Assembly (NCBI GenBank): GCA_040758255.1
Contig: JBFLVX010000001.1
Span: 132 to 64,131, forward strand
Direction: 5' to 3'
DNA length: 64,000 nt
Source: Nitrospirota bacterium
Lineage (GTDB): Bacteria > Nitrospirota > Thermodesulfovibrionia > UBA6902
The number at the start of each line of letters is the position of its first letter. The first letter of the stretch is position 1. The notes beneath the pieces were generated by a model that saw only the letters and a program-made list of their open reading frames with translations, had not been told where the DNA came from and searched no databases. The position numbers and the translations under genes were made by a program. This document shows positions 1 to 62,449 of the stretch, one piece after another.

Positions 1-138
1 CATAATATTGACAAGCTTATAACTATAGCACAAGAGTTATGAAAAAAGATGAGCTAAGATTAAGAGAATATATATTTGTGTTAGTAGAATTTGAGACCCC
101 CAAAAAAGTCGGTTGGAGTTTTCTATATCTCCGTTAGG

Positions 139-321
139 TTATAACTCCCCGCAGTCCTTCCGCACTTGTCGGAACGACTCGTCCCGATATGCGGAAACCA
201 CTCCTTGATACCCGCAGATGGCGCAGAATTCATCAAGAATAACAGCTTTCCCCTTGCGACAGGCTCTCTTGTCCCGTAAGTATATGGCCTCAAGATACCC
301 CCTTTTGGATCGTGAATTCAT
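139..321 (-). CDS. small Cys-containing hypothetical protein (60 aa), possible zinc-ribbon/HNH-like fragment
   Basis: ORF with CxxxxG...CAICGY cysteine pairs; no confident family match; sits in an AT-rich edge region. Confidence 0.2.
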   Translation of the reverse strand: MNSRSKRGYLEAIYLRDKRACRKGKAVILDEFCAICGYQGVVSAYRDESFRQVRKDCGEL

Positions 322-476
322 AATGTTCTCCTTTTAACTGCATGTTTTTTCAGTAACATGCATTATGAGTCAACGATATGTTTTACTTCTACTTGCGGTA
401 ACATTTTTTATGAGGTAGTTTAGATGGCAATTCGTTGTACATTGCTTGATAGCTGATATCTCTTTATAATAAAACA

Positions 477-2063
477 ATGAAGAATATCCTCCGCCGCGCT
501 GCCCGCTCAATAACAGCGAAACTTATAGCCGCCGTAGGCTTGTTGATGATTGCGGGAAGCCTTATATTCTGGTACGCCATTCTGTACAAACAGGAAAAGG
601 ATATCATGTCAATAGCTGTAAAGTACGGCGTCTCTTTTATTGATTTTGTAAAAGAGAGCACACGCTACGGCATGCTCACCCGCCACAGATCAGATATTCA
701 GCAGACTCTTGAAGATATAGATCTGGCGGAAGGCGTTGAGAGGGTGCGTATCTTTGACCATACAGGAAAGATATTCTACTCTACCGATAGGCAGGATATA
801 GGCAATTCAGTGACAAAGACTTCCCTACCATGCAATGGGTGCCATTCAGACATTGAAAAATCATCTCAACTCCTCAAGGAGCCAAAGAAATGGGATAATT
901 ACAAAAAACCTGACGGGGTCACCGCCCTGAAACTCGTTGAGCCTATTTACAATGAGCCTGCCTGTTACACTGCCGACTGTCACGCGCACCGGGAAGGGCA
1001 GAAGATATTAGGCTTTGTAGAGGCTGACGCTTCGCTTGCTCTTCTTGACGAAGCCATGCTAAAACAGGAGTTAGCCGCAGCCGCATACGTGATCGTCTTC
1101 CTGCTGATGCTCTCCATAAGCATAGTTGTCATACTTTGGAAAATAGTCGCTAAGCCTGTCGGTGAGCTTTCTTACGGGATAAAGAAGGTATCCTCCGGAG
1201 ACCTTGATCATTCAGTTCCCGTAAAATCAAGAGATGAGATAGGATTGCTGGCGGCTTCGCTCAATTCCATGATAAAAGATCTGAAAGCTGCAAGGGATCA
1301 GAAGAATACATGGAGGCAGACACTTGAGGCAGAGGTCTCAAAAAAGGCTGAAGAGATACAGAAGACACATTGCGGCTTTTTGCAAACAGAAAAACTCGCA
1401 TCCCTCGGCAGGATGGCATCGGGGATAGCAAACGAGCTTAATATTCCCTTAAAGGAACTACTCGATTCCGCGCATTCATTAAAGAAGCGGCTCCCTTCCG
1501 GAAGCCCTGAGGCGGAAGACGTTGATGTAATAATTGAGCAGGCCGCGAGGGCTGAGAAGATAATAAGCAATTTTCATGACTTTACGAACGCAAAACCGTC
1601 CGAAAAAGGCAGTGTAGATATTTGCGCTCTGCTAAACAGGACAATATTCATCATAAAGAACCAGAAGAAGTTCCGTAATATCAGGATCAATGTTCTCACA
1701 GACGAGATACCTCTCTTTCCCTGCGGCGACCCCTCCCAGTTTCAACAGGTTTTTCTGAATATGCTTGTGAACGCTGCCGATGCCATGAATGAGACGGGTG
1801 AGATAACTGTTGAAATACGCAAAATAACGGAAGATGCGAAATCATATGTTGAAATAAATTTTACAGACACGGGTCCGGGGATAAAGGACGAGGATATGCC
1901 GAGATTATTTGAGCCGTTCTTCACAACCAAATCAACAGGGGAAAACACAGGGCTGGGGCTCTCTGTCAGTCACGGCATTGTCAAGCATCTTGGAGGATAT
2001 ATTAAGGTATTAAGCGAGATTGGCAAAGGCGCTACGTTTTCTGTTAGACTTCCGTTAACTTGA
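477..2063 (+). CDS. sensor histidine kinase: two TM helices flanking a periplasmic domain with a heme-c binding motif, then HAMP, HisKA and HATPase_c
   Basis: TM1 LIAAVGLLMIAGSLIFWYAILY and TM2 VIVFLLMLSISIVVILWKIV. Periplasmic segment contains CNGCH (canonical CXXCH) and CYTADCH (CX4CH variant). HAMP-like DEIGLLAASLNSMIKDL. H-box LASLGRMASGIANELNIPL. G-boxes DTGPGI and GLGLSVSHGIV. Confidence 0.85.
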   Translation: MKNILRRAARSITAKLIAAVGLLMIAGSLIFWYAILYKQEKDIMSIAVKYGVSFIDFVKESTRYGMLTRHRSDIQQTLEDIDLAEGVERVRIFDHTGKIFYSTDRQDIGNSVTKTSLPCNGCHSDIEKSSQLLKEPKKWDNYKKPDGVTALKLVEPIYNEPACYTADCHAHREGQKILGFVEADASLALLDEAMLKQELAAAAYVIVFLLMLSISIVVILWKIVAKPVGELSYGIKKVSSGDLDHSVPVKSRDEIGLLAASLNSMIKDLKAARDQKNTWRQTLEAEVSKKAEEIQKTHCGFLQTEKLASLGRMASGIANELNIPLKELLDSAHSLKKRLPSGSPEAEDVDVIIEQAARAEKIISNFHDFTNAKPSEKGSVDICALLNRTIFIIKNQKKFRNIRINVLTDEIPLFPCGDPSQFQQVFLNMLVNAADAMNETGEITVEIRKITEDAKSYVEINFTDTGPGIKDEDMPRLFEPFFTTKSTGENTGLGLSVSHGIVKHLGGYIKVLSEIGKGATFSVRLPLT

Positions 2064-2173
2064 AGTACAATTAACCACTGAGAGCACGGAGGAGATATAT
2101 TGACAGCAAAAGAGGGAAAGTATTATTTCACCACAGTGGGCACAGAGAAAAAGAATTTTAGATTTTTAAAAAG

Positions 2174-2243
2174 CTCTGCGAACTCTGTAGTTGCTTCTTC
2201 TATGTTTTTTAAAATCAAAACTGTCTCTGTGAACTCTGTGGTT
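2174..2243. promoter_or_regulatory. two copies of a 19-bp direct repeat (ctctgYgaactctgtRgtt) about 50 bp apart, immediately upstream of the HK-like ATPase/DRTGG/PHP operon
   Basis: Seen directly: 2174-2192 ctctgcgaactctgtagtt and 2225-2243 ctctgtgaactctgtggtt, 17/19 identical. They lie between the histidine kinase stop and the start at 2265. Confidence 0.3.
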
Positions 2244-2264
2244 TTATTTTAAGGATTAAGGGAT

Positions 2265-2711
2265 ATGGATATAAACCGGACAATTGAAGGGAGTTTTCAG
2301 CTAATTGGAGGGGAGTTTACTAACGCCGGCGAATCATCAATGCAGCTTAAACAAAAGCTTACAGAGATTGAATTAGGCAGAGACATTATAAAGAAGGCTG
2401 CGATTGTGGCCTTTGAGGCAGAGATGAATGTAATAATTCATGCGGCTGCCGGGTGGCTGCGTTACTATATAACCAAAGATGAATTAAGGATCGTTATAGA
2501 GGATATGGGGCCGGGCATTGCAGATATTGAACTCGCGATGAAGGAGGGCTATTCCACCGCGCCCGAATGGGTAAAAAATATGGGGTGGGGAGCCGGTATG
2601 GGCATGGCAAACATGAAGAGGAATTGCGACGTAATGAGAGTTGATTCGGTTGTCGGAGAAGGAACAACTATTGATATTATTATAAATCTCACTAAAGGAG
2701 AAATTATATGA
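2265..2711 (+). CDS. histidine kinase-like ATPase (anti-sigma regulatory factor / GHKL fold), hydrogenase/NuoEFG-cluster associated type
   Basis: HATPase-like motifs EDMGPGI and VVGEGTTIDIII; small size of 148 aa; overlaps downstream DRTGG gene, so operon. Confidence 0.7.
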   Translation: MDINRTIEGSFQLIGGEFTNAGESSMQLKQKLTEIELGRDIIKKAAIVAFEAEMNVIIHAAAGWLRYYITKDELRIVIEDMGPGIADIELAMKEGYSTAPEWVKNMGWGAGMGMANMKRNCDVMRVDSVVGEGTTIDIIINLTKGEII

Positions 2712-3067
2712 AGCTCCAGGATCTGGCGGATAAATTATTTTTACATGCTGTGTCTTACGATAAAGGTCTCAGTAAAGATGTCTCCGGAGGTTACGTAAGC
2801 GACCTGCTCTCTGATGTGCTCGCAAATTGCGCAGAAGGCAGCGTCTGGATTACACTGCAGAAGCATACGAATATAGTGGCTGTTGCAAGCCTGAAGAACC
2901 TCGCAGGGATAATTATTGTCGGGGGAAGAGAGCTTGAAGAAGAGGTATTAAAGCAGGCCGAGGCTAAGGAAGTCACAATTATGACAACCCCTATGTCCGC
3001 CTTTGAAACAACAGGCATGATCTACCAGCTTCTGAATGAAAACAAAGGGTCTGAAGAAAGTTGCTGA
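2708..3067 (+). CDS. DRTGG domain protein
   Basis: IIIVGGRELEEEVLKQAEAKEVTIMTTPMSAFETTGMIYQL matches the DRTGG signature; 4-bp overlap with the upstream gene. Confidence 0.65.
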   Translation: MKLQDLADKLFLHAVSYDKGLSKDVSGGYVSDLLSDVLANCAEGSVWITLQKHTNIVAVASLKNLAGIIIVGGRELEEEVLKQAEAKEVTIMTTPMSAFETTGMIYQLLNENKGSEESC

Positions 3068-3804
3068 AAGAATTCAGGGCAGACCTGCACATTCACACAT
3101 GCCTCTCCCCATGCGCTGATCTTCATATGACCCCTTCAGCGATAGTGAAGAACGCCTCTGAAAACGGGCTTGATATCATAGCCATAACCGATCACAATTC
3201 AGCGGAGAACATTATTGGAACAAAGAAAGCCGCTGAAGGTGCAGGCTTAACAGTGCTTGCCGGTATGGAAGTCACCTCCTCAGAAGAGGTTCATATATTA
3301 GCGCTCTTCGATGACATAAAAGACGCTTTAAAACTGCAGGACATTGTATATAAACACCTCGCGTCAGACAGAGATTATGACGGCGGATTGGGCGAGCAGG
3401 TGGTGGTCAATGAAAAGGACGAGGTGATGGGTTTTAACAAGCATCTGCTTATAGGCGCAACATCTTTGACCACTCTATCTATTGTTAATATTATACATTC
3501 TCTTGGAGGGCTTTCCATCGCCTCTCATATTGACAGAGAAGGTTTCGGGATAATCTCCAAGCTTGGTTTTATACCGAAGGATTTGAACTTCGACGCTCTT
3601 GAAATATCCCCAAATACAGATAAAGAAAAAGCAGAAGGTTTATTCAGAGATTACAAATCCTTTCAATGGATCTCTTCCTCAGATGCGCATTATATTGAAG
3701 ATATAGGGAAAAGGAGAACAAGCTTCTTCATAAAAGAAGCAACATTAGCGGAAATGAGAGGAGCTTTAAGAAATACCGGCGGCAGAAGAGTTGAATGGGA
3801 ATAA
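3061..3804 (+). CDS. PHP-domain (polymerase/histidinol phosphatase-like) metal-dependent phosphoesterase
   Basis: N-terminal ADLHIHTCLSPCADLHMTPSAIVKNASENGLDIIAITDHNS with HxH and DH metal ligands typical of PHP domains. Confidence 0.75.
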   Translation: MLKEFRADLHIHTCLSPCADLHMTPSAIVKNASENGLDIIAITDHNSAENIIGTKKAAEGAGLTVLAGMEVTSSEEVHILALFDDIKDALKLQDIVYKHLASDRDYDGGLGEQVVVNEKDEVMGFNKHLLIGATSLTTLSIVNIIHSLGGLSIASHIDREGFGIISKLGFIPKDLNFDALEISPNTDKEKAEGLFRDYKSFQWISSSDAHYIEDIGKRRTSFFIKEATLAEMRGALRNTGGRRVEWE

Positions 3805-3948
3805 AAGAGACTTTATCAGGGCAGAGACCAAGTGCTTTTCAGCATTACAGAGAAAAATTTGAACTATTTCTTCTAAGTAAACGCCCTAAATGATAGACAT
3901 TGATTGCAATGGACAATCCCCTGATACAATATGCCGGGGAGAGGAAAA

Positions 3949-5556
3949 TTATCCGCCCTTCTTCCAGTAAGGGCTTGAGATATCTTCAAACACAGTAAGC
4001 GCTGCGACCGCTCCCTGCGAAACAGCGGTAACGATCTGCTTGACCCCTCCGGTGATATCCCCCGCTGCATATACAAGGGGCATGGATGTCCTCATGTGCC
4101 CGTCAACTTTCACATAACCTTCTTCGTCAAGTTCCAGCCCGATTTTCTTCGCTAAATCGTTATTGGGTTCATAACCTATTGCTATAAAAACGCCCTGTGC
4201 CGCCATATCCCTCTTATTCCCCGTTATTATGTCTTCAATCGTGACTTTTTCAACAACCGTTTTACCGTGGATTTCCTTCACAACACTGTTAAACAGAACA
4301 GGTATGTTCCTCTGAAACACACTCTGTTGAAGTCTCTCTTCAGCCCTGAAAGTATCTCTGCGGTGCACTAATGTCACATGCGCGCCGAGGCTGTCAAGAT
4401 AAAGGGCATCGGTCAAAGCGCTGTTCCCTCCGCCAACAACAATGACGTTCTTCCCGTCCTTAAAAAGGTATCCGTCACATGTAGCGCAATAGCTGACTCC
4501 CCTGCCCGCAAGGCTGGTCTCACCTGACGCATTGAGCGTCCTGCTGCCAGCGCCGGTTGCTATGATAATCGCCCTGGCATTGTATATTCCCCTTCCCGTA
4601 GCTACTTCAAAACCGTCTTTCTTTTTCTTTATCTCACTTACCCCGACTCCCTGAAGAAGGAGAGAGTATTCCAGTGTCTGTTTTACCATCATATCAACAA
4701 GCGTCCTGCCCGCGATCCTTGCAAAGCCGGGGTAATTTTCAACTACCGGGGTTATTGATATCTGCCCCCCGGCATTCGCGCTTTCAAACACTATGCTCTT
4801 AAGTCCGCTCCTCTCCGCGTACATGGCGGCTGTGAGTCCCGCGGGGCCTCCACCGATCACAACAATATCGTAATCCCTGAGATCCTGCCTTCCGGCGGGC
4901 ATGACATACTCTACGGGTTTTCCTTCAACTATGGACTCTATGAAATAATCCTCAGGGAGGAGCCCCGGCGCAATCAGTGTTTCACCGACAAAAGTTTTAG
5001 GAACGGACATAGCAGCATATTTTTCAGCAAGGTCCAAGTTCTCATAAATCTCAATAATCTCAACCGAAACCATATCTTTCTTCTCTATTACTGCCGATAC
5101 CGCATAGAGCACCTGCTGCGGACAGTAAGGACAGGTAGGGCTGACAAAGACGCGGACCTTCCTTTTTTCTGTAAGCCTCTCAAGCCGCTTTCTTGAATCA
5201 TCCGAAATAAAGTTCCTCCCCGTTGACGCCATTATTAAAGAGAGGACAAATGAACCGGCCTCTTCGCCTGCGGGAGCTCCGGTATAACGAATATTGTACT
5301 TATCAGGCGCTATAAGGATTGTAGGAGACCTTTCAATCCCGCGCTTCCTGGCGTGATCGTCCTTGAGCCTGTAAAAGTTCACCTTGATCTTGTCCGTAAG
5401 CTCGGGCATGACTTTCAGCAGGCTCACCGCAGCTTCATTGAACGGCTCATTCATACCCGCCTGAGTATAGACCTCGATCAGGACAGTATCTTTAAGCTGT
5501 TTAAACGCCTCACGCAGCGACCTCTTAATGTCTTCGTTGATAAGCTCTTTTTCCAT
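3949..5556 (-). CDS. AhpF-like NAD(P)H disulfide oxidoreductase: N-terminal thioredoxin/glutaredoxin-fold domain fused to a thioredoxin-reductase-like FAD/NAD(P) domain
   Basis: N-terminal CPYCP redox motif; FAD GxGxxG (IVVIGGGPAGLTAA); second dinucleotide fold VIVVGGGNSALTDA; redox-active CATCDG disulfide typical of TrxB/AhpF. Confidence 0.8.
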   Translation of the reverse strand: MEKELINEDIKRSLREAFKQLKDTVLIEVYTQAGMNEPFNEAAVSLLKVMPELTDKIKVNFYRLKDDHARKRGIERSPTILIAPDKYNIRYTGAPAGEEAGSFVLSLIMASTGRNFISDDSRKRLERLTEKRKVRVFVSPTCPYCPQQVLYAVSAVIEKKDMVSVEIIEIYENLDLAEKYAAMSVPKTFVGETLIAPGLLPEDYFIESIVEGKPVEYVMPAGRQDLRDYDIVVIGGGPAGLTAAMYAERSGLKSIVFESANAGGQISITPVVENYPGFARIAGRTLVDMMVKQTLEYSLLLQGVGVSEIKKKKDGFEVATGRGIYNARAIIIATGAGSRTLNASGETSLAGRGVSYCATCDGYLFKDGKNVIVVGGGNSALTDALYLDSLGAHVTLVHRRDTFRAEERLQQSVFQRNIPVLFNSVVKEIHGKTVVEKVTIEDIITGNKRDMAAQGVFIAIGYEPNNDLAKKIGLELDEEGYVKVDGHMRTSMPLVYAAGDITGGVKQIVTAVSQGAVAALTVFEDISSPYWKKGG

Positions 5557-5644
5557 AAGTACTATTTTATCAAAAATATCCGTAATCCTGCGTTATTCAC
5601 AGCGCAACTGTTTTTCAATGGCAGGGGAGAGATGATAAGCAAAA

Positions 5645-5674
5645 AAGGGGAATAAACCGTGGTTTATTCCCCTT
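5645..5674 (-). terminator. intrinsic-terminator-like hairpin (about 13-bp GC-containing stem followed by U-rich tract on the minus strand) inside the 5' leader of the AhpF-like gene
   Basis: Seen directly: AAGGGGAATAAACC / GGTTTATTCCCCTT perfect inverted repeat, followed on the minus strand by TTTTGCTTATC. It sits about 90 nt upstream of the ATG at 5556 with no upstream minus-strand gene to terminate. Confidence 0.45.
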
Positions 5675-5909
5675 GCGTAACATACAAGTTGCCTATTAAC
5701 TATTTGTTACGGTATCACCTCAAAGGCGTCAAGGTCTATTAAATTTATTTGAAATTTTGCAGTTAATAAAAAATAGTGTTATAAAAATAGCATAGCTCTA
5801 TATGTATTTTGTCAACAAATATTTACCAAAAAAATTAAAATAAAAGTCAACAGGGTTGCGTCTTGAATCGTGCGTGACTAATTATAAAAATTTGGACTGC
5901 ATTAAATTT

Positions 5910-6461
5910 ATGGAAGACCTGTCCCTTCACATCCTTGACATCGTAGAAAACTCGATAACCGCAGGAGCTGCAAATATACGGATAAAGATCAATGAAGATA
6001 CCGGAGAGAACCTTCTTCTTATAGAGATAAGCGATAATGGCAAAGGCATGGATGAGGAGATGCTTAAAAATGCCCTCGACCCTTTTCATACCACAAGGAC
6101 AACCCGCAACGTAGGGCTCGGCATCCCCTTTCTTGCGGATGCGGCAAGGGATACCGGCGGGGATATTGCCATAAAGTCTGTGAAGGGAGAAGGCACAACC
6201 ATTACCGCAACTTTCCGGCATGATCATATTGACAGAAAGCCTCTTGGAGATATTGGGAAGACCCTGATAGTAATTATCGCCTCCAACCCTGACATTGATA
6301 TTCTCTTTGAGTATAAAAAAAACAATTCTGAATATATGCTGGATACGGCAGAGATAAAGAAGGATCTGGACGGCGTCCCGATAAATACGCCGGGGGTAAT
6401 AAAGGCTATTGAAAATGATTTAAAAGAATGGTTTAATAGTACCAACCTTATGATAAAATAG
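5910..6461 (+). CDS. second histidine kinase-like ATPase (GHKL fold) of the cluster
   Basis: LHILDIVENSITAGA N-box-like, DNGKGMD, GLGIPF, VKGEGTTITATF G-boxes. The supplied ORF starts at a TTG at 5856; the ATG at 5910 is the more likely start. Confidence 0.65.
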   Translation: MEDLSLHILDIVENSITAGAANIRIKINEDTGENLLLIEISDNGKGMDEEMLKNALDPFHTTRTTRNVGLGIPFLADAARDTGGDIAIKSVKGEGTTITATFRHDHIDRKPLGDIGKTLIVIIASNPDIDILFEYKKNNSEYMLDTAEIKKDLDGVPINTPGVIKAIENDLKEWFNSTNLMIK

Positions 6462-6526
6462 TACGACGCGTGATGATAAATTTTTAAGTTGCAGGCGTCG
6501 AAAGGCCTGCCGTAAGAGCAAAGACT

Positions 6527-7294
6527 ATGGAAAAACAGCGCATCTTAGTGCTTGATGACGACCCTGTTGTAACCCTGAGCTGCAAGAGGATTCTCAGCTC
6601 CGAGGGCTTCATCATCTCCACAGTGGAAAAAGGAGAAGACGCCCTCAATAAATTAGCTAAAGAGGATTTTGACCTCTTAATAACCGATGTAAAACTTCCC
6701 GATATAAGCGGGATGGAGGTCCTTAAAGAGGCTCGCATAATAAAGCCAAATACGGATGTGGTGATAATTACCGGCTATCCTAACCTTGAAGACGCAAAGG
6801 AATCAACAGGGCTCGGAGCCGCTGAATACATAGAGAAACCATTTACTCCTGACTTCATGATAAATGTCGCAAAGAAGGTCTTTGACAAGAGGGGATGGAT
6901 ACTCAGGCAGGCGTTTGTTGATGAATTCAGGGACTCTGTCGTATCGTTAAGGGACAGGGAAAATCCGGTCCTCTTTTATAAAGAAGGCACATGGTCAAGG
7001 CCCATTAAGGGCGGATTATGGGAGATGGGATGCGACCTCAGGTATTGGCTTCTGAGCGGGGAGCTTGCGTATGTTGATTTTATAAAAGGCGTTGATGAAC
7101 TGAAAGCCGGAGAACCGTTTGCAAGGATCTACACAAGCGCCGGACAATCCAATGAACTGCTTTCGCCTATGAGCGCAGAGATCAGAGAAGTGAATGTAAA
7201 AGCAAATGATGTCATGACCGCCCTGCTTAAAGAGCATTTGTCGGAAGGGTGGTTATTGTGGCTGGCAAGGGTATTTCCAAAAGGTAACGATTAA
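6527..7294 (+). CDS. response-regulator receiver domain fused to a glycine-cleavage-H-like (GcvH-fold) domain that lacks the lipoyl-lysine
   Basis: REC motifs: LVLDDDPVV, phospho-acceptor D in DLLITDVKLP, KP in IEKPF. The C-terminal 120 aa align by eye to GcvH (Y.KE..W, VDF..G..L.AGEP.A.I.S..........P.S.EI.EVN, GWLLWLA) but have SAGQS where the lipoylated K sits. Confidence 0.7.
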   Translation: MEKQRILVLDDDPVVTLSCKRILSSEGFIISTVEKGEDALNKLAKEDFDLLITDVKLPDISGMEVLKEARIIKPNTDVVIITGYPNLEDAKESTGLGAAEYIEKPFTPDFMINVAKKVFDKRGWILRQAFVDEFRDSVVSLRDRENPVLFYKEGTWSRPIKGGLWEMGCDLRYWLLSGELAYVDFIKGVDELKAGEPFARIYTSAGQSNELLSPMSAEIREVNVKANDVMTALLKEHLSEGWLLWLARVFPKGND

Positions 7295-7531
7295 TCTTGT
7301 CCTTTAGCATTAATTGATACCTTGAATTTAACCCGGATAATGCAGATATTGCTCAATAACTTGTTTAACTCGATGATTTTTTTATTTGATTATTATATTA
7401 TGCATATGGCGTTAATTAAAAATATGCGCTGTTATAAAGATTAAATTCGATTAAGGTATCGAAAAACAAGTTCTTTCCCAACATCTGCATTATCTTAAAT
7501 GCTTTGATTTGGGAATTATACTGGAAGAACT

Positions 7532-8401
7532 ATGGCGGATAACGGGAAGATACTCGTTGTAGATGATGAACCGATAGTATTAAGGAGCTGTGAGAGGATA
7601 CTGAAATCGGAAGGGTACAGTATCGCCCTCGCCGCAGGCGGGCAGGAGGCGATAAATATCCTTCAAAAGGACGATTACGATCTGGTGATCACTGACCTGA
7701 AGATGCCTGAAGTTGACGGCATTGACTTGATAAAATGGCTGAGAAACTCAAAGCCGGCAACCGGGGTAGTTGTCATAACCGGCCATCCCTCGCAGGAGAC
7801 CATTAAAGATGCGCTTAATTTAGGCATAATTGACTACCTGCCGAAACCCTTTACCCCTCCGGTGCTTATAGATGTCACTGCAAAGGCCATGAAGATTACA
7901 ATGGTCAGGGCCTTGCCGGAAAAGACTCCTGAAGAGGATGAAGTTGAATCTAAGACCGCTGATCTTGAGAAGATCATAGCTGCAAACCGTAACAGGCCCG
8001 GAAGCCTTATCCCTGTTTTGCAGAAGGCTCAGGAGTTGATAGGATATCTCCCGCCGTCCGTTCAGAGGCATATAGCAAAAGGCCTGAATATTCCGGTCAG
8101 CGAAGTGCACGGCGTTGTCTCTTTCTATTCATTCTTCACAATGAAACCAAAAGGCAGGCATAGCGTAAAGGTTTGCCTTGGAACAGCCTGCTACGTAAAG
8201 AGGGCTGAAGAGATAATCGAAAAATTAAAAGCTACATTAAATATAAATGTCGGCGAGGTTACAAAAGACAGGAGATTCTCTCTTGAGAGTGTCAGGTGTC
8301 TCGGTGCATGCGGGCTGGCGCCAGTGGTCGTGATTGATCATGATACGCATGCATCTGTTGACCCTGTAAAGACTCCGGAGATACTTAAAGAATATGATTA
8401 A
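7532..8401 (+). CDS. response-regulator receiver domain fused to a NuoE/HoxE-like thioredoxin-fold [2Fe-2S] subunit (HndA-like)
   Basis: REC: VVDDEPIV, DLVITDLKMP, LPKPF. C-terminus: CLGTACYVKRAEEI ... VRCLGACGLAPVV, the four-Cys pattern of the 24-kDa NuoE family. Confidence 0.8.
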   Translation: MADNGKILVVDDEPIVLRSCERILKSEGYSIALAAGGQEAINILQKDDYDLVITDLKMPEVDGIDLIKWLRNSKPATGVVVITGHPSQETIKDALNLGIIDYLPKPFTPPVLIDVTAKAMKITMVRALPEKTPEEDEVESKTADLEKIIAANRNRPGSLIPVLQKAQELIGYLPPSVQRHIAKGLNIPVSEVHGVVSFYSFFTMKPKGRHSVKVCLGTACYVKRAEEIIEKLKATLNINVGEVTKDRRFSLESVRCLGACGLAPVVVIDHDTHASVDPVKTPEILKEYD

Positions 8402-8428: not shown

Positions 8429-8818
8429 TTGACAATGGCAAGATTAAAGATAGAAGATCTGCAAAGAATCAAGGATGAGCATAAGGCAGCTTCCACATTA
8501 AGAGAGGGCGGCTTCAGGGTAAAGATCACAGTGCACATGGGCACATGCGGCCTCGCGGCAGGAGCAAGAAATATAATGAGCGCATTGCTGGATGAGATTG
8601 AAAAGAGCGGCGTCACCGATGTCATTGCAACAACCTCGGGCTGCGCAGGGCTCTGCAGCCGCGAACCGATGGCAACAATAGAGGTAATCAACCAGCCGCC
8701 GGTCAAGTATGGATCTTTAACAGAGGATAAGATACGCAGAATATTTAAAGAGCATATTATCGGCGGGAATATTATTGAGGAATATGCGCTTGTTATAGGG
8801 AGCGAAACAGCGTATTAA
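8429..8818 (+). CDS. small thioredoxin-like [2Fe-2S] ferredoxin (HndB-like)
   Basis: VHMGTCGLAAGA ... TSGCAGLCSREP cysteine arrangement of NuoE-like 2Fe-2S domains; 129 aa; positioned between NuoE-like and NuoF-like genes as in hnd/hyd operons. Confidence 0.7.
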   Translation: MTMARLKIEDLQRIKDEHKAASTLREGGFRVKITVHMGTCGLAAGARNIMSALLDEIEKSGVTDVIATTSGCAGLCSREPMATIEVINQPPVKYGSLTEDKIRRIFKEHIIGGNIIEEYALVIGSETAY

Positions 8819-8890
8819 TAAGTTTTTAGTTGTTAGTTTTTAGTCAAAAAACTGAAAACAGACAACTAACAACTGAGTAAAAGAGGGAAT

Positions 8891-10723
8891 ATGCAGAAAT
8901 ATCGCGCAAATTTAATGATGTGTGCAGGGACAGGTTGTGTTGCCTGCGGCGCTCTTAAGATAAAAGACGCGCTTAAGGCAGAGCTTAAGGCCAAAAACCT
9001 TGAGGATGAAATCCAGATAGTCCTCACAGGCTGTAACGGCTTTTGCTCCAACGGCCCTATTATGGCTGTATTTCCCGACGGCATCTTCTATCAAAAGCTC
9101 AAACCTGAAGATATCCCTCTTCTTGTTGAAGAGCACCTCTTAAAAGGCCGGCCTGTGGAAAAATTTATGTATCAGGAGCCGGAGAAGAAGACCAAGGTGC
9201 CTGCGATGAAGGATATCCCTTTCTTCAACCTCCAGGTTTTAAGAGCGCTTAGAAATAAAGGGATGATAGACCCTGAGAAGATAGAGGACTACATTGCAAG
9301 AGACGGGTATCAGGCAGCGGCAAAGGCGCTCTTGCATATGACATCAGAAGAAATTGTAAAAGAGATAAAGGATTCAGGTATCAGAGGCAGGGGAGGCGCG
9401 GGTTTCCCGACAGGGCTGAAGTGGGAGTTCTGCTCAAAAGTTAAGTCGGACATTAAGTATATCCTCTGCAACGGCGACGAAGGCGACCCCGGAGCATTTA
9501 TGGACAGGAGCGTTATGGAGGCAGACCCTCATGTTGTGTTAGAGGGGATGATCATCGGAGCAAAGGCGATCGGGGCGACTATGGGTTATATATATGTGAG
9601 GGCAGAGTACCCCCTTGCTGTCAAGAGGCTCCAGATCGCGATTGATCAGGCAAAGGAAGCCGGGCTTCTTGGAGAGAACATTCTTGACAGCGGCTTCAGC
9701 CTGAATATAGAGATATATGAAGGAGCAGGAGCATTTGTATGCGGTGAGGAGACCGCGCTCATGCGTTCAATTGAGGGCAAGCGCGGTATGCCGAGACCAA
9801 GGCCGCCCTTCCCTGCTGTTAAAGGCCTGTGGGACAAACCTACAGTGCTTAACAATGTTGAGACATTCGCAAATATACCGCCCATAATCCTTAACGGAGC
9901 GGAGTGGTTCAGGAGTCTCGGCACCGAAAAGAGCACGGGCACAAAGGTCTTTGCGCTCACCGGAGCTGTAAATAATATCGGCCTTATAGAAGTGCCTATG
10001 GGCATACCTTTAAGGACTATCATATATGACATCGGCGGGGGGATTAAGAACAACAGAAAATTCAAGGCTGTTCAGCTTGGAGGGCCATCCGGCGGATGCA
10101 TACCTGAAAGCCTCCTCGACACACCTGTAGATTATGAATCAATCAATGCAACAGGCGCCATTGTAGGCTCCGGCGGCATGGTTGTCATGGACGATTCAAA
10201 CTGCATGGTAGGCATGGCAAAATTCTTCCTTGAGTTTACCGCTGAGGAGTCATGCGGAAAATGTCCGCCGTGCAGAGTGGGAACAAAGGTGATGCTTGAT
10301 ATGCTGACCGAAATTTCAGAAGGCAGGGGGAAAGAAGGGGATATGGAACTGCTTCAGGACCTTTCAGCAGACATTATCAACACCTCTCTTTGCGGCCTTG
10401 GGCAGACCGCTCCAAACCCTGTGCTTACAACGATAAAGTACTTCAGGGATGAGTATGAATCGCACATCAAGGATAAATGGTGCAAAGCCGGAGTATGTAA
10501 AACACTAACGACATTTTATATAGATGAAGCACTGTGCAAAGGATGCGGGCTCTGCTTAAGGGCGTGCCCCAAAGGCGCAATCACAGGGGAGAAGAAGCAG
10601 CCGCATAAGATAGATAACGAGCTATGCATCAAGTGCCGCTCGTGTTATGTGGCCTGCCCCGTGAAATTCGGCGCGGTAAAGATTGGCCCGGGGAATATGA
10701 CGGTTGCGGCGGAGAGTAAATAA
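8891..10723 (+). CDS. NuoF-like NAD(P)H-binding flavoprotein subunit (HndC/HydB/FdhB type) with N-terminal 2Fe-2S domain and C-terminal 2x[4Fe-4S] ferredoxin domain
   Basis: FMN site GRGGAGFPTGLKW, NADH site GEETALM, N3 cluster ESCGKCPPCR, C-terminal CKGCGLCLRACP and CIKCRSCYVACP, N-terminal CAGTGC...C NuoE-like domain. Confidence 0.9.
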   Translation: MQKYRANLMMCAGTGCVACGALKIKDALKAELKAKNLEDEIQIVLTGCNGFCSNGPIMAVFPDGIFYQKLKPEDIPLLVEEHLLKGRPVEKFMYQEPEKKTKVPAMKDIPFFNLQVLRALRNKGMIDPEKIEDYIARDGYQAAAKALLHMTSEEIVKEIKDSGIRGRGGAGFPTGLKWEFCSKVKSDIKYILCNGDEGDPGAFMDRSVMEADPHVVLEGMIIGAKAIGATMGYIYVRAEYPLAVKRLQIAIDQAKEAGLLGENILDSGFSLNIEIYEGAGAFVCGEETALMRSIEGKRGMPRPRPPFPAVKGLWDKPTVLNNVETFANIPPIILNGAEWFRSLGTEKSTGTKVFALTGAVNNIGLIEVPMGIPLRTIIYDIGGGIKNNRKFKAVQLGGPSGGCIPESLLDTPVDYESINATGAIVGSGGMVVMDDSNCMVGMAKFFLEFTAEESCGKCPPCRVGTKVMLDMLTEISEGRGKEGDMELLQDLSADIINTSLCGLGQTAPNPVLTTIKYFRDEYESHIKDKWCKAGVCKTLTTFYIDEALCKGCGLCLRACPKGAITGEKKQPHKIDNELCIKCRSCYVACPVKFGAVKIGPGNMTVAAESK

Positions 10724-10726
10724 TAT

Positions 10727-13177
10727 ATGATAACGCTCACTATAAACGGTAAAAAGGTTGTTGTTACAGAAGGCACCACGATCCTTGAGGCAGCCCTGCA
10801 GAACGGGATCGAGATCCCAAACCTCTGCTATGACAAGCGCCTCTCACCTTACGGCGCGTGCCGCCTCTGTGTTGTTGAGGTCGAGGGGCAGAAGAAGCTG
10901 CTGGCAGCATGTTCAACGCCGGTAACAGAGGGGATGGAGGTTAAGACAGAGACGCCGAAACTCTTCAAGGCGAGACAGACCGTGCTTGAGCTTCTTCTTG
11001 TCCACCACCCTCTTGACTGCCCCGTATGCGATAAGGCAGGGGAATGCAAGCTTCAGGACCTTGCGTTCAAGTACTGTTCCACCAAGAGCCGCTTTAAGGG
11101 AGAGAAGAAGCATGAGCTTGTTGACACTGGCAGCCCGATTGTAGAGAGAAACCCGAACAGGTGCATACTCTGCGGCAAGTGCGTAAGGGTCTGCGGCGAA
11201 TTACAGGGGGTAGGAGCCATAAACCTCCTGGGACGCGGCTTCGCCTCAAAGATAAGCCCTGCATTTGAAGAGACTCTTGACTGCGAATTCTGCGGCCAGT
11301 GTATAGACGCGTGCCCTGTCGGCGCGCTTGGCAGCAAGCCTTATAAATACAGCTCAAGGGCCTGGTTCCTTGAAGCGCATGACAACATCTGCCCCTACTG
11401 CGGTGTCGGATGCACTGTAACATATGACATCAGGGAAGGGAAGATAATCAGGGCAAAGGGAATAGAAGGCAGGGGAATAAACGAGGGCAACTTATGCGTT
11501 AAGGGAAGGTTCGGTTTTGATTACATCTACTCGAAGAACCGCCTGAAGACCCCGCTGATAAAAGAAGGCGACGGTTTTAAGAGCGTATCTTGGGAAGAGG
11601 CGCTGAACCATATCGCCAGGAAACTCAAGGCGATCAAAGATGCGCATGGCGCTGACGCGATCGGAGCGATAGGCTCTCCAAGATGCACGGTTGAAGACAA
11701 CTTCATGCTGAGGAAGTTTATGAAAGATGTAATCGGAAGCGACAATATAGATTCTTCATCAAGGTTCGGATACGCGAAGATACAGCGTGCCGTTGAGATG
11801 GCGTTCGGGCTTGAATCCCTGCCTGTAGATTTTAACTCTCCAATTGGGAAAGAAGCGATTCTGATAATAGAGTCCGACATCACCTCAACCCATCCTGTCT
11901 GGGGATTAAATTTCCTGAAGGCACAACGCAAAGGTTCATTCCTTATTACAGCAGACACCCGCGAGACAAAACTCACGCGGCACAGCAGCCGATGGCTCAG
12001 GCTGAAGCCCGGAACCGGGGCTGCGCTTATTAACGGGATCATAAAGATAGCCCTTGATGAGGGGCTGTATGATAAAGAGAAGGCCTCACATATTCCGGGA
12101 CTCTCTTTTCTCTCTGACAGCGTAAAAGAATACACCTCGAAAAAGGTTTCAGATATCACCGGCATTGCAGAAGATGTTTTCGTCAATACTGCGAAGAGAT
12201 TTCTCACTGCAGGCTCAAGGCTTATTGCGCTTACAATAGGGGCTGCTGAAGATACAAAGGGGCTGAATACAGCTCTTGCCGCAGCCAACCTGCTCCTGCT
12301 TATAGGTGAAGGGCCTGCGAGCATTCAGATGCCCGCTGAATACTGCAATACCTTTGGTATGTGGCACAAAGGATTGAGGCAGGGAAGATCAGGCAGGGAT
12401 ATTATATCCATGCTTTACGGTGAGGATACGGTCAAAGCTTTATATATTATGGGAGAGAACCCCGCTGTCACATTCCCTGACGCAACAACTATTGATAAAA
12501 CCCTTCGCGGCCTCGACTTTCTTGTTGTGCAGGATATAATGCTTACAGAGACCGCCAAGCTGGCAGACGTGGTGCTTCCTGCCGCAAGCTGGGCGGAAAA
12601 AGAGGGGACATTTATCTGCGCTGAGGGCATTGAACAGAAGGTGCAGAAGATAAGCCAGACCGAAGGAGAGCCTGTGCCTGACTGGCAAATTTTGAGAAAC
12701 CTCTCAAGGGCTATGGGTTTTGAGGTCGGGGCAAAGAACATAACAGCTCTTCAGGATGAGATAAATGAGATAAAGACCGAAGAGAGAACCGCTGAGACGA
12801 TCTTCAACCCAGTTGAATATATCCCCGGAGAAGAGCCGGATGCCGATTACCCTCTTGTGATGATAACAGGCAACCTCATGCAGCATTCAGGGGCGTTATC
12901 AGTCATGTCCCGGAGCCTGAGCCATGTGCTTGCAGATGCGTTTCTTCAGATAAGTAACGCTGACGCTGAAAAATACAATGTCCGCGATGAAGGCTTTGTG
13001 AAGGTAACTTCAAGAAGAGGCTCTGTTATGGTAAAGGCAAGGCTCTCCGATGAAGTGCCTGAAGGCAGCGTCTTCCTTCCAATTCATTTCCCGCATGCAA
13101 AGATAAATACGCTTACGCGCTTGTCCTTGAACGGCGAAGCGCCGCTCAGCGCTGTAAAGATTGAAGCGGTGAAGTAA
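10727..13177 (+). CDS. NuoG-like Fe-S / molybdopterin-oxidoreductase-fold subunit; catalytic Cys/Sec-His of formate dehydrogenases not present
   Basis: N-terminal 2Fe-2S (CYDKRLSPYGACRLC), His-ligated cluster HHPLDCPVCDKAGECKLQ, CILCGKCVRVCGE and CEFCGQCIDACPVG, Mo-domain 4Fe-4S CPYCGVGCTV. At the position of FdhF ARVUHGPS it has SRFGYAKI. C-terminal molybdopterin_binding-like domain present. Confidence 0.85.
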   Translation: MITLTINGKKVVVTEGTTILEAALQNGIEIPNLCYDKRLSPYGACRLCVVEVEGQKKLLAACSTPVTEGMEVKTETPKLFKARQTVLELLLVHHPLDCPVCDKAGECKLQDLAFKYCSTKSRFKGEKKHELVDTGSPIVERNPNRCILCGKCVRVCGELQGVGAINLLGRGFASKISPAFEETLDCEFCGQCIDACPVGALGSKPYKYSSRAWFLEAHDNICPYCGVGCTVTYDIREGKIIRAKGIEGRGINEGNLCVKGRFGFDYIYSKNRLKTPLIKEGDGFKSVSWEEALNHIARKLKAIKDAHGADAIGAIGSPRCTVEDNFMLRKFMKDVIGSDNIDSSSRFGYAKIQRAVEMAFGLESLPVDFNSPIGKEAILIIESDITSTHPVWGLNFLKAQRKGSFLITADTRETKLTRHSSRWLRLKPGTGAALINGIIKIALDEGLYDKEKASHIPGLSFLSDSVKEYTSKKVSDITGIAEDVFVNTAKRFLTAGSRLIALTIGAAEDTKGLNTALAAANLLLLIGEGPASIQMPAEYCNTFGMWHKGLRQGRSGRDIISMLYGEDTVKALYIMGENPAVTFPDATTIDKTLRGLDFLVVQDIMLTETAKLADVVLPAASWAEKEGTFICAEGIEQKVQKISQTEGEPVPDWQILRNLSRAMGFEVGAKNITALQDEINEIKTEERTAETIFNPVEYIPGEEPDADYPLVMITGNLMQHSGALSVMSRSLSHVLADAFLQISNADAEKYNVRDEGFVKVTSRRGSVMVKARLSDEVPEGSVFLPIHFPHAKINTLTRLSLNGEAPLSAVKIEAVK

Positions 13178-15873: not shown

Positions 15874-17897
15874 AATCCTTCAAACTCGTAAGATGGAACC
15901 CCTTTAAAACCGTAACATCTGAAGATCGTGTAAACCCTCAGGACCTTGCCGTTCTCATAAACAGTGAATGTCTCCCTCTCGTATTTATCAAATGCGCCTA
16001 TAAGCTTCTCCGGAAAAGATGTCTGATCCATTCTGACAAAGAGAGCGTCATATCCTATAAGCTTCTCCATGCCTCCCCAGATATCGTACTGGCCCATCCT
16101 CCTGCCAAGATTAACGCAGTACGTAACCGGCTTCTTTGGCATATAAAAGGCGAGTTCGCTTGATACCTGATATTTGTCCGAAAATATGAATACATTTTTG
16201 CCTTGTGAAGCGGTCATGTCGCTGTATACTTTATCCATCTTTATGCCGAGTTCTTCCCAGCCTCGCAGCCTTGAGGAAGGGTCCATTTTAAACGGGAGAT
16301 TGATGACCGAAGGATAATGGGCAATCGCTGTAACTATTATTGCCAGAGAGAATGCGGCAATTAGAAATGGTCTGCTGATCTTCTTAATATATCCTTTACC
16401 AAGCATATGATCCGACGATGCGATAAATGCCGTAATATACGCGCTCATCGCCCAGTTTGCCTGCACCTTCCCTTGCAGGCTCTTCAGCAGAAAGAAACCG
16501 AGAACAGGCGCCCAGAACCAGAAGAGAAGACGCCTCACCTGCGGCAAACGGCCCGTGAAGTAATTCCTGATCCCGCCGTCAATTACAAGAAAGAAGAGTA
16601 TGGGCGTTATAACGCCGAACTGTGAGCCTAAAAAATTGAAAAACTCCTTTGCGGAGATTACAAATCCCTTTGCAAGATTGGCATGCCCTTCAGTGTGCTT
16701 GAGCGTAACCCAGCCGTGATTCATGTTCCAGATTATAACCGGACTGAATATCAGAAGGCTCACAAGTAGCGCGATATACGGCTCCTTCTTCCTGAACCAT
16801 CTCCTTTCTTCTTTGTGGAATAAAAAGAAGAGGAACCCGCAGATATAGAAGAAGGCCATTGTGTATTTGGTGAGCAGCCCAAGCCCTATGCTGACACCGA
16901 GCAGTATCCAGACCCATCCCTGGCTCTTGCCTTCTGTCTTGCTTACTGCTTTATAGAATAGATAGATTGACAGCGTCCAGAAGAATATAAATGGCGGGTC
17001 AATGGTCATTATCAAGCCTGATGAAGAAAAGAGCGGGGTCGCCTGAGGCATAAGCGCGGCTAATAAAGCCTTCTTTCCAGCATTATTATCTTGAGCAAAA
17101 AGTTCAATGGAAAATTTGTAAATAACAAGTGAAATGAGGGCAAGAAATATTGGCGCAAGAAACCGCACAGCAAAGACAGAGTCACCCATTATCCATGTCG
17201 AGGCTGCGATAAGCCAGGCGATAGCAGGCCCCTTTTCGTAATAGCTCAGATCCAGCCTTTTTGCCCATGTCCAGTAATTTGCTTCGTCCGGGCTCAGATC
17301 AAGAGGCCCCGTCAGTATGTAATAGTAACGGAAAAGAGTTATGGCGATGAGTGCAAGAAAAAGGATGGTGGAATGGGGGCTCTTCCTGAATCTCTCTGCA
17401 GACCATCTATACATCAGGATAACAATCCCCGCTGCCAGAAATCCCCATATAGCTCCTGCAAATACATCGGATGGATAATGAACGCCTATGTATACTCTTG
17501 AGAATGCAACAAGAATTGCAATGACAAACATCGGCAGAGAGGCCCTTCTGAAGAAGTAAGAGAAGGCCGCGGCTGAGGCAAAGGCATTTACCGCGTGATT
17601 CGACGGCATGGAAAAAGAACCTCCGCAGCCTCCAAGGAGCCTCACCTCTTCAAGGGTATGGCAAGGTCTCGGAATTTCAAAGAGATGCTTCAGAAAGTTG
17701 GCGCTTGCGTCTCCAATTCCTAAGGCAATAAAAGATAAGAGAAGAGCAATAAGGCCTTTTTTGCGCTCTTTCAGAAAAAAAGGGGTTACAACCAGAAAAA
17801 AGATGATGTATGACCTGCTGGTTATAAAAGGCATTATCAGGTCAAAGAATGAATTCTGCAAGCCCTGATTTATAAGAAAGAAGAGGGACGTGTCCAT
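15870..17897 (-). CDS. fusion protein: N-terminal PAP2 lipid phosphatase domain plus ArnT/PMT-like (GT39/GT83) glycosyltransferase multi-TM domain
   Basis: PAP2 motifs KHLFEIPRP, PSNH, SRVYIGVHYPSD; then SPDEANYWTWAKRLDLSYYEKGPAIAWL resembling the DE-containing first periplasmic loop of ArnT-family transferases; many TM helices. Confidence 0.7.
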   Translation of the reverse strand: MDTSLFFLINQGLQNSFFDLIMPFITSRSYIIFFLVVTPFFLKERKKGLIALLLSFIALGIGDASANFLKHLFEIPRPCHTLEEVRLLGGCGGSFSMPSNHAVNAFASAAAFSYFFRRASLPMFVIAILVAFSRVYIGVHYPSDVFAGAIWGFLAAGIVILMYRWSAERFRKSPHSTILFLALIAITLFRYYYILTGPLDLSPDEANYWTWAKRLDLSYYEKGPAIAWLIAASTWIMGDSVFAVRFLAPIFLALISLVIYKFSIELFAQDNNAGKKALLAALMPQATPLFSSSGLIMTIDPPFIFFWTLSIYLFYKAVSKTEGKSQGWVWILLGVSIGLGLLTKYTMAFFYICGFLFFLFHKEERRWFRKKEPYIALLVSLLIFSPVIIWNMNHGWVTLKHTEGHANLAKGFVISAKEFFNFLGSQFGVITPILFFLVIDGGIRNYFTGRLPQVRRLLFWFWAPVLGFFLLKSLQGKVQANWAMSAYITAFIASSDHMLGKGYIKKISRPFLIAAFSLAIIVTAIAHYPSVINLPFKMDPSSRLRGWEELGIKMDKVYSDMTASQGKNVFIFSDKYQVSSELAFYMPKKPVTYCVNLGRRMGQYDIWGGMEKLIGYDALFVRMDQTSFPEKLIGAFDKYERETFTVYENGKVLRVYTIFRCYGFKGVPSYEFEGF

Positions 17898-17898
17898 T

Positions 17899-60730: not shown

Positions 60731-60765
60731 TCATTTTCATTTTTGTTGAAATTTTTTTATAACCC

Positions 60766-61908: not shown

Positions 61909-62440
61909 CGATAGCCTTGAATTTAGGGGTTCCGGCTTTTTCAAGGAGTTGGAACAAAACAGTCTCAGTACAGGTTATCACCGCGCCTGCGTCTCGCATC
62001 AGCTCCCTGCCGGTTAGATAGTCATCTTTTTTTCTTGAGCAGACGGCATCGCTCACAAGATGGACGGAATACTTCTTCAGAAGGCTCAGACAAGTCTGAA
62101 GCACGCAAACATGCGTCTCCATGCCGGTAAGGATGATATGCTTTCTCTTTAGAGAGGTTATCTTCCTGAGAAAACCTCCCCCTTTACAACAGTCAAACGT
62201 CACCTTCTCAAGCGGCTTGTAGGCAGGAAGGGCTTTTTTAATCTCATTGATCGTATGGCCAAGCCCTTTCGGATACTGCTCGGTAACTACGATAGGGATA
62301 TTAAGTAGCTTCGCTGCTTCAAGCAGATGGAGGCAGTTGTTGACCGCCGTCTCCTTCTGCTTCATTACAGCCGCAAGCTTCTCCTGAACGTCTACAATAA
62401 CGAGAACCGAGTTGTCCTTAGTGAGGATGAATTTGTCCAA
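61892..62440 (-). CDS. isochorismatase-family cysteine hydrolase
   Basis: VLVIVDVQEKL, catalytic-Cys context GMETHVCVLQT. Confidence 0.75.
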   Translation of the reverse strand: MDKFILTKDNSVLVIVDVQEKLAAVMKQKETAVNNCLHLLEAAKLLNIPIVVTEQYPKGLGHTINEIKKALPAYKPLEKVTFDCCKGGGFLRKITSLKRKHIILTGMETHVCVLQTCLSLLKKYSVHLVSDAVCSRKKDDYLTGRELMRDAGAVITCTETVLFQLLEKAGTPKFKAIVKRIK

Positions 62441-62449
62441 GATAATTTT

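Follow-up and report, generated by a model that had tools for sequence, protein, structure and literature searches.

A predicted two-haem Cache sensor joined to a histidine kinase-like transmitter that lacks its phospho-acceptor histidine in a Nitrospirota bacterium

Sensor domains of the Cache type that carry c-type haem are among the few bacterial means of reading redox state or nitric oxide (NO) outside the cytoplasm, and their one-haem members alone have been studied. The periplasmic haem-c domains of two Geobacter sulfurreducens chemoreceptors, GSU0582 and GSU0935, were reportedly described in 2006-2008, with structures (3B47 and 3B42, respectively) said to date from Pokkuluri 2008. The haem in these domains is high-spin when oxidised and low-spin when reduced; Met60 binds it upon reduction and is displaced by carbon monoxide (CO) or NO (PMC8396549). 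A preprint of February 2026 (bioRxiv 10.64898/2026.02.01.703092) groups GSU0582, GSU0935 and DUF3365/Tll0287 as 'sCache_heme', with one canonical CXXCH per domain and NO-sensor-like properties; it quotes the segment EVRCQSCHEQGAR for 3B47 (GSU0582) and makes no mention of two-haem members. Transducers with two motifs have been noted by sequence, namely GSU0599 (a two-component protein), GSU0591, Adeh_2011 and Adeh_3383 (Londer 2006; PMC3831638; PMC8396549), and the literature that we searched contained no biochemical study of a two-motif protein. Here we analyse a gene with two such motifs, located at positions 477-2063 of a stretch of 64,000 nucleotides from a Nitrospirota bacterium (contig JBFLVX010000001.1, positions 132 to 64,131 of the forward strand; the whole stretch is called the window below). 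We consider it fairly probable that the gene encodes an inner-membrane signal transducer, a di-haem Cache sensor on a transmitter that does not autophosphorylate and that acts, most likely, as a signal-dependent pseudokinase or phosphatase. At issue is the coupling between the redox state of the periplasm and the flow of electrons in the cytoplasm of sulfate- or sulfur-metabolising Nitrospirota.

The gene and its parts are laid out as follows (aa, amino acids; nt, nucleotides; TM, transmembrane helix).

477-2063, + strand: sensor-transmitter gene, 528 aa, ATG start; encodes TM1, Cache sensor, TM2, HAMP, degenerate DHp and ATPase domain
522-584, + strand: TM1 (aa ~16-36), a signal anchor with the N-terminus inside (Kyte-Doolittle 19-residue windows >1.6)
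588-1070, + strand: predicted periplasmic single-Cache/PAS-like sensor domain (aa 38-198), from AlphaFold2, Foldseek and a profile comparison with the PDB
672-674, + strand: Met66, candidate distal ligand of the site-2 haem, from conservation and alignment to 3B42 and 3B47
831-845, + strand: putative haem motif 1, CNGCH (aa 119-123), in the insertion between strands beta2 and beta3, from conservation; a short helix in the model
963-989, + strand: putative haem motif 2, CYTADCH (aa 163-169, nt 963-983), plus His171 (together CX4CHxH), from conservation and homology to the GSU0582/GSU0935 site
1074-1142, + strand: TM2 (aa ~200-222), Kyte-Doolittle maximum 2.92
1140-1286, + strand: HAMP (aa 222-270), Pfam PF00672, E=1.6e-13
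1404-1586, + strand: DHp (HisKA-like) helix pair with a degenerate H-box; Asn319 is codon AAC at nt 1431-1433
1725-2057, + strand: catalytic ATP-binding (CA) domain, apparently intact, HATPase_c E=2.6e-27

The two hydropathy helices, the positively charged N-terminus (four Lys or Arg and no Asp or Glu among the first 14 residues) and the HAMP domain directly after TM2 place aa ~38-198 outside the cytoplasm. The sensor segment contains four cysteines, every one of them within CNGCH or CYTADCH. Of the 37 open reading frames (ORFs) in the window that reach 150 aa, none but this one contains CXXCH or CX4CH. An exact-sequence look-up of the 528-aa protein found no record.

We found that the two motifs belong to a large family. 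A first search returned ten relatives, all from Nitrospirota-type metagenome bins, and in all of them, even at 30% identity, the two motifs are unchanged. When a profile of the sensor domain was searched against 1.84 billion cluster representatives (50% identity clusters), it gave 1,730 matches at E<=1e-3, 883 at E<=1e-10 and 195 at E<=1e-30; the family thus spans no fewer than 1,730 such clusters. Conservation was counted in 146 near-full-length sensor domains, taken from the top profile matches and aligned. Cys119 of motif 1 is present in 146/146, and Cys122 and His123 in 145/146 each; in motif 2, Cys163 is kept in 145/146, Cys168 in 142/146 and His169 in 143/146. Family conservation of 97-100% puts the two motifs beyond chance. 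Met66 is found in 144 of the 146 domains and His171 in 141, while Met66, His123, His169 and His171 occur together in 135, and nearly all aligned domains have exactly four cysteines. As read from this alignment, the family signature is Met, then CXXCH, then CX4CHxH. The spacing at site 2 is CX4CH in the great majority, CX2CH, CX3CH, CX5CH and CX6CH being rare, and such variation around a constant Cys...CysHis is as expected of haem attachment. Three sequences (P0116, P0120 and P0154), the sole members with CX2CH at site 2, have no His at +2 and a shorter following loop; since both features are missing together, CX4CH and the +2 His appear to act as one unit. The branch is mostly fused to histidine kinases: of 79 full-length members, 76 contain HAMP, 69 HisKA and 66 HATPase_c, with a few carrying an extra PAS or GGDEF domain. 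Current Pfam models catch the signature only in part. PF21563 (Mcp40H-20_sensor) matches 34 of the 79, and whole-protein scans of the window protein with Pfam and NCBIfam gave no sensor-domain match at E<=0.01.

The fold and the second motif could be related to the Geobacter domains. A 51-sequence profile compared with the PDB had as its best matches 3B42 (GSU0935, E=8.9e-7) and 3B47 (GSU0582, E=3.5e-6), and an 8-sequence profile had given weak, collinear matches to the same two sensor domains. In the alignment, '...NEVRCQS--CH' of 3B47 stands opposite '...NEaaCytseCH' of the family, so that the counterpart of the Geobacter CQSCH haem site is the CX4CH motif, which has two extra residues between its cysteines. 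At chain position 26, both 3B42 and 3B47 have a Met that aligns with Met66; the numbering offset of 34, taken from the haem ligands His144/His143, identifies this residue as Met60. An AlphaFold2 model built from the 51-sequence alignment had a predicted local distance difference test score (pLDDT) of 88.1 and a predicted template modelling score (pTM) of 0.84 (an earlier AlphaFold model from 8 sequences, with pLDDT 60, was discarded). It consists of a long helix running to Met66, a second helix, two strands, the insertion with CXXCH on a short helix (residues 80-86 in domain numbering), two further strands, the helix/loop of CX4CHxH, a fifth strand and a helix leading into TM2. Foldseek matched this model best to the extracellular Cache domain of WalK, 3B42, CitA, KinD and DctB (E=3.5e-6 to 1e-4), which identifies the sensor as a single Cache/PDC fold. 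A first-pass annotation of this DNA had placed CNGCH and CYTADCH between two TM helices, in a periplasmic segment, and had suggested a c-type haem sensor of redox state or gas; the topology above confirms the placement, and the homology to 3B42/3B47, the Met60-Met66 alignment and the Cache fold support the haem-sensor reading. Both motifs almost certainly mark c-type haem sites, and the outward-facing domain, judged by its sequence, very probably carries two covalently bound haems.

The transmitter half of the protein, in contrast to that of nearly all its relatives, lacks the phospho-acceptor histidine. We compared 67 aligned copies from the window and 70 fetched loci, and found that the H-box reads GIANELNIPL in the window and GIANELSSPL in the nearest ortholog (locus L004, from a groundwater Nitrospirae metagenome-assembled genome (MAG), contig JACRPZ010000076; its sensor is 91% identical to that of the window), as against GVAHEINNPLTG in the 65 other copies. 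Position 319 is therefore His in 65/67 copies and Asn only in these two. HisKA (aa 310-370) scores 20.5 bits, under the Pfam cutoff of 26.9, and Asn319 in the H-box accounts for this weak score. HATPase_c (aa 417-527) scores 95.9 bits over model positions 1-109 of 111, and the N, G1, F and G2 boxes of the CA domain are readable as NAADA, DTGPGI, FEPFFTTK and GLGLS. Between the window and the nearest ortholog the synonymous divergence (dS) is 0.51, and the ratio of non-synonymous to synonymous divergence (dN/dS) is 0.10 overall, 0.10 in the sensor, 0.07 in the DHp and 0.20 in the ATPase domain. A dN/dS of 0.10 over a dS of 0.51 indicates a selected gene, neither a sequencing error nor decay, and we rejected pseudogene decay on this ground. 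The stretch right after the H-box His is the receiver-docking and phosphatase region of HisKA kinases. In the window protein the corresponding aa 320-337 form the least conserved stretch in the comparison with the nearest ortholog, while being nearly invariant in His-containing relatives; the E-x-x-N that a phosphatase reading would call for is kept in the window and not in L004.

To judge from its H-box, this gene copy is unable to signal by autophosphorylation. With the phospho-acceptor His gone and the adjacent response-regulator genes missing (see below), plain phosphotransfer is unlikely, which leaves, by inference, a role as a pseudokinase, as a phosphatase or as the partner of a paralog. 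We rank a signal-dependent, partner-binding pseudokinase first, its partner being perhaps a His-containing paralog or one of two receiver fusions encoded downstream; a regulated phosphatase second; and a non-canonical phosphorylation route third. That the protein is a working kinase after all, autophosphorylated on His298 of the linker helix or on His332 (13 residues past Asn319), or phosphorylating the His of a paralog within a heterodimer, and then passing the phosphate to the receiver fusions, is in our view unlikely. His298, ~21 residues before the H-box position, and His332 both lie outside the reach of the ATP lid in HisKA kinases, and, although each is conserved in the nearest ortholog, each is also present in members with the canonical His and is thus not compensatory. 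The intact and conserved ATPase domain (dN/dS 0.20), the intact receiver domains and a His-containing paralog (locus L005) carried by the MAG of the nearest ortholog all speak for such a kinase; the degenerate flank of the H-box and the sub-cutoff HisKA score speak against it.

The genes downstream of the sensor gene include the two receiver (REC) fusions and a set of redox genes.

2265-3804, + strand: SpoIIAB-like HATPase (2265-2711), DRTGG (2708-3067) and PHP (3061-3804) genes, from Pfam and NCBIfam
3949-5556, - strand: AhpF/thioredoxin-reductase-like protein (N-terminal thioredoxin-fold domains plus TrxB), in mid-cluster and absent there in L004
5856-6461, + strand: orphan HATPase_c-only protein of 201 aa (HATPase_c E=5.6e-16), in the same place in L004, L039 and L043
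6527-7294, + strand: REC-GcvH-like fusion, candidate sensor partner (Response_reg E=1.5e-25, GCV_H E=2e-3)
7532-8401, + strand: REC-NuoE fusion (N-terminal receiver; thioredoxin-like 2Fe-2S), candidate sensor partner (Response_reg E=4.4e-32, 2Fe-2S_thioredx E=9.3e-50)
8429-13177, + strand: small 2Fe-2S protein, NuoF/HydB-like and NuoG-like subunits, from Pfam and NCBIfam (NuoF family E=1.2e-153)

The NuoF/HydB-like subunit has the HydB-like extra 2Fe-2S and 2x[4Fe-4S] parts. The last, 816-aa subunit (10727-13177, + strand) passes the NCBIfam NuoG equivalog with 474.5 bits against a cutoff of 470.05 and fails Fdh-alpha with 447 against 666; we therefore rejected its identity as a formate dehydrogenase and regard the cluster as a second NuoEFG-like (soluble-type) NADH module. 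Both receiver fusions keep the DD, D, T and K residues, as read from their sequences, and the first 120 residues of the REC-GcvH-like protein, which form its receiver domain, show 100% identity to those of L004; both fusions are presumably still phosphorylated by something. In a by-eye alignment of the GcvH-like domain, YTSAGQS stands opposite the E. coli GcvH motif ESVKAAS, the lipoyl-lysine being apparently replaced by Gly, and the domain is for that reason probably not lipoylated.

We surveyed one genome per species, which gave 67 loci, and mapped the window proteins onto them. In 25 loci of Nitrospirota/Thermodesulfovibrionia (and two more that are truncated or frame-shifted) a single receiver gene, in many cases together with one for an NtrC-type sigma-54 activator, comes after the kinase gene in the same orientation; the genes for the REC-GcvH-like and REC-NuoE fusions, the small 2Fe-2S protein and the NuoF/HydB-like subunit are next. 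The NuoG-like subunit comes after the NuoF-like one wherever the fetched locus reaches far enough. The syntenic sensors of these 25 genomes are as low as ~31-39% identical to that of the window (L043, L039). Upstream, on the opposite and divergent strand, most of the 25 carry a complex I (nuo) operon, and L005, L006, L007 and L001 have it there too. The HATPase/DRTGG/PHP trio lies within or beside the cluster in L004, L012, L032, L039, L043 and L047. The window and L004 are without the single receiver and the NtrC-type gene, and have the ATPase/DRTGG/PHP/ATPase genes directly after the kinase gene; L043 shows the same gene order as the window, but keeps the His and the regulators. Thus, unlike in its relatives, no stand-alone or DNA-binding regulator is adjacent to the window kinase, whose receiver fusions lie 4.4-5.5 kb downstream of it, and no NtrC-type gene was found near the cluster in the window.

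In a tree built by neighbour joining, the window and L004 share a long branch nested within the clade that also contains L005-L007. The L005-L007 kinases have retained the His; their genes face the nuo operon, and the single receiver alone comes after them. The simplest reading is that of a duplication, in which one copy would have stayed with nuo and the receiver, while the other stayed with the NuoEFG-like cluster and lost the His and its regulators. Just upstream of the window kinase, at 135-322 on the - strand, we read by eye a short ORF of ~60 aa; the nuo operon of the relatives does not lie within the first 476 bases of the window.

In more distant family members, at ~30% identity and from Acidobacteriota, Thermoanaerobaculia and others (L048-L069 and L003), the gene after the kinase encodes an NtrC-type regulator, and ORFs with three CXXCH (~157 aa, tri-haem) or five CXXCH (~230 aa, penta-haem) occur within 10 kb. 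In L003, at 16297-17967 and downstream of the distant family member, GcvH-like genes flank a cytochrome c7 gene beside NrfD and 4Fe-4S genes; together with the window, this means that the GcvH-like module recurs with the sensor family. A 2,841-aa ORF with 21 CXXCH motifs was seen in L036.

The gene order makes a functional link of the sensor to the NuoEFG-like cluster a well-supported prediction. The neighbourhood might instead be incidental, the sensor controlling something elsewhere and the HATPase/DRTGG/PHP and REC-NuoE genes being regulated independently; we regard this as improbable. In favour of an incidental neighbourhood, the kinase gene is separated from the next gene by a spacer of 201 bp (2064-2264), ~180 bp of which is an insertion missing from L004, an opposite-strand AhpF/thioredoxin-reductase-like gene interrupts the cluster, and the distant members pair with an NtrC-type regulator near cytochrome genes. 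Against this, the order from kinase to NuoF-like gene recurs in 25 species-level Nitrospirota genomes, and in L004 the next gene begins ~10 bp after the kinase stop codon. The first-pass annotation had linked the sensor to these redox genes, and in this it is borne out by the 25 loci; it had also supposed a working histidine kinase with possible phosphotransfer to the two receiver fusions, which is not supported for this copy, Asn319 standing where 65 of the 67 copies have His.

Two copies of a 19-bp direct repeat, CTCTGYGAACTCTGTRGTT, lie in the inserted part of the spacer (2174-2192 and 2225-2243); chance would give none, and the window holds no other copies. The insert with this repeat could be an inserted element of small size, or a site at which a regulator binds. 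Because the relatives carry an NtrC-type regulator, we looked for sigma-54 promoters: TGGCAC-N5-TTGCW, with <=2 mismatches, had 18 matches in the window against 29 expected, none of them in the relevant intergenic region. In a scan of nt 1-8000, no + strand terminator between the kinase gene and its downstream neighbour was convincing, and matches resembling promoters stayed at chance level. Farther downstream, the region 22099-44881 (both strands) holds genes for an HNH endonuclease, UvrD/AddA-like and AddB-like nuclease-helicases and a REC-PilZ protein, as well as ORFs of 1,397 aa (HEAT repeats only) and 1,808 aa (no Pfam match), DUF1016, DUF6602 and two ORFs without matches; this region, which is unrelated to the sensor, is possibly a defence or mobile island.

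Several observations weigh against the reading of the gene as a di-haem sensor on a pseudokinase or phosphatase. The window domain alone scores 20.9 bits with PF21563, where the cutoff is 27. Neither cytochrome c maturation genes nor other cytochromes were found in the 64-kb window, four ORFs of at least 150 aa at 60014-63979 lying outside the family scans, so the competence of this organism to make haem c rests on its relatives. The loop after motif 1 is badly modelled, with pLDDT <50 at domain residues 91-96. The three CX2CH members without His171 keep motif 1, which downgrades a role of His171 as ligand of haem 1 to a possibility. The His-containing paralog is seen in the MAG of L004 and not in the window, the only sequence of this organism examined, and synteny does not prove physical interaction between the sensor and the cluster proteins. 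The variable aa 320-337 and the E-x-x-S of L004 are easier to reconcile with loss of the receiver-docking surface than with a dedicated phosphatase.

The poorly modelled loop, and the lack of a structurally proven counterpart for any site but site 2, favour a sensor with one haem on the ancestral CX4CH, the CXXCH being a structural disulfide or metal site. We find this quite improbable. Motif 1 has no counterpart in the one-haem Geobacter sensors; it is the more canonical of the two motifs, and its His is conserved like its Cys (145/146), for which a disulfide would have no need. Its segment also shows weak local similarity to the haem-binding segments of NrfA (E=4e-4 to 2e-3), and the additional motif of the relatives has been treated as haem-binding (PMC3831638, PMC8396549). 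It is highly improbable that the motifs bind zinc or an iron-sulfur cluster in place of haem, or that the gene is a decaying relic: although haem is predicted here from sequence and maturation genes were not found among the scanned ORFs of the window, the domain is homologous to solved haem-c domains at the same residues and has an invariant His after each second Cys, and the low dN/dS excludes decay.

What the data show are the topology, the motifs and their family conservation, the homology, the fold, the synteny, the loss of the His and the selection; the attachment and number of the haems, their ligands, the signal and the output are predictions. The di-haem reading suggests how the sensor could work. 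Haem 2 would be attached to the CX4CH (Cys163/Cys168) with His169 as proximal ligand, at the place of the Geobacter haem, and Met66 would be its exchangeable distal ligand. Haem 1, on the CXXCH (Cys119/Cys122, His123), would occupy the insertion that separates strands 2 and 3, the place at which small ligands are bound in ordinary Cache domains; its sixth ligand may be His171. This added haem may be the entry point for electrons, equilibrating the domain with periplasmic cytochromes. By analogy with Geobacter, a redox change conveyed by periplasmic carriers, or the binding of NO or CO, would alter spin and ligation at the Met-ligated haem and shift the N- and C-terminal helices, and with them TM2 and HAMP, as has been proposed for the Geobacter domains. 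In ordinary family members, the haem signal would set the activity of the HisKA kinase toward the receivers of the cluster, thereby controlling the second NuoEFG-like module. In the lineage of the window, the duplicate would have kept the haem sensor, HAMP and the ATP-binding domain, while its His changed to Asn and the adjacent regulators were lost; this copy would act on the REC-GcvH-like and REC-NuoE receivers, or by pairing with a His-containing paralog.

A bolder version, which we put forward tentatively and think rather doubtful, would have the di-haem sensor signal through its kinase-dead transmitter directly to the receivers on NuoE and on the non-lipoylated GcvH-like protein. The NuoEFG-like module would then be controlled post-translationally, bypassing transcription, and the His-containing paralog beside the complex I operon would be the matching kinase of a kinase/anti-kinase pair with one kind of haem sensor in common. 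More generally, the association with REC-NuoE and REC-GcvH-like proteins in Nitrospirota suggests that phosphorylation acts directly on the NADH-oxidising module, and a paralog without the phospho-acceptor His that is still under selection offers a natural experiment.

Compared with the systems described, the window protein is closest to GSU0582 and GSU0935. All are periplasmic between two TM helices, followed by HAMP, and have a Cache/PAS-like fold; the haem site after strand 4 and the distal Met of the N-terminal helix fall at aligned positions, and the family profile match is significant, the window sequence by itself falling short of the PF21563 cutoff. They differ in that the Geobacter domains carry one haem on CXXCH and have a chemoreceptor signalling output, whereas here the site aligned with theirs is CX4CHxH, a second CXXCH lies in the beta2-beta3 insertion, and the output is a HisKA-type transmitter. 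At the homologous position after strand 4, the window protein has CYTADCH in place of the canonical CXXCH, which a few family members have there.

Haem-binding motifs of the CX4CH type occur in the tetrahaem cytochrome c3 of Desulfovibrio, and CX4CH is a genuine covalent attachment motif in anaerobes. Cytochrome c3, however, is a soluble electron carrier of another fold and function, and we found no sequence relationship. An identity of the window protein as a multihaem cytochrome c (a c3/c7 carrier) was rejected, given its Cache fold and the fusion to HAMP, DHp and CA domains, its similarity to cytochromes being only the short NrfA-like segment at motif 1.

With regard to the output, NtrB (NRII) H139N and similar His-substituted kinases reportedly keep a regulated phosphatase activity. 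The window protein shares with NtrB H139N the change of the H-box His to Asn and the neighbouring E-x-x-N (N319-E-L-N322), and departs from it in that its ortholog L004 has E-x-x-S and that the flank is its least conserved stretch, both of which speak against a phosphatase site under conservation. In DivL of Caulobacter crescentus, the kinase module is reported to read the state of a receiver protein with no phosphorylation of that receiver (PMC4211667); other histidine pseudokinases are PsmA (PMC12963549) and RocA (PMC7380576). As in DivL, the phospho-acceptor His is replaced and the gene is retained as functional; DivL differs in having Tyr rather than Asn, in being cytoplasmic with PAS domains and an unrelated sensor, and in that for the window protein receiver binding is only a candidate property.

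The proteins noted earlier for two motifs, GSU0599, GSU0591, Adeh_2011 and Adeh_3383, share with the window protein an 'additional haem-binding motif' and the CX2-4CH signature, and, compared by description only, probably belong to the same subfamily; a word-indexed search with the 51-sequence profile yielded short fragments for the most part, none of its matches being a named Geobacter protein. The class of haem sensors is thus known, and its two-motif branch had been noticed but is uncharacterised; to this our analysis adds the size of the branch and its fixed signature.

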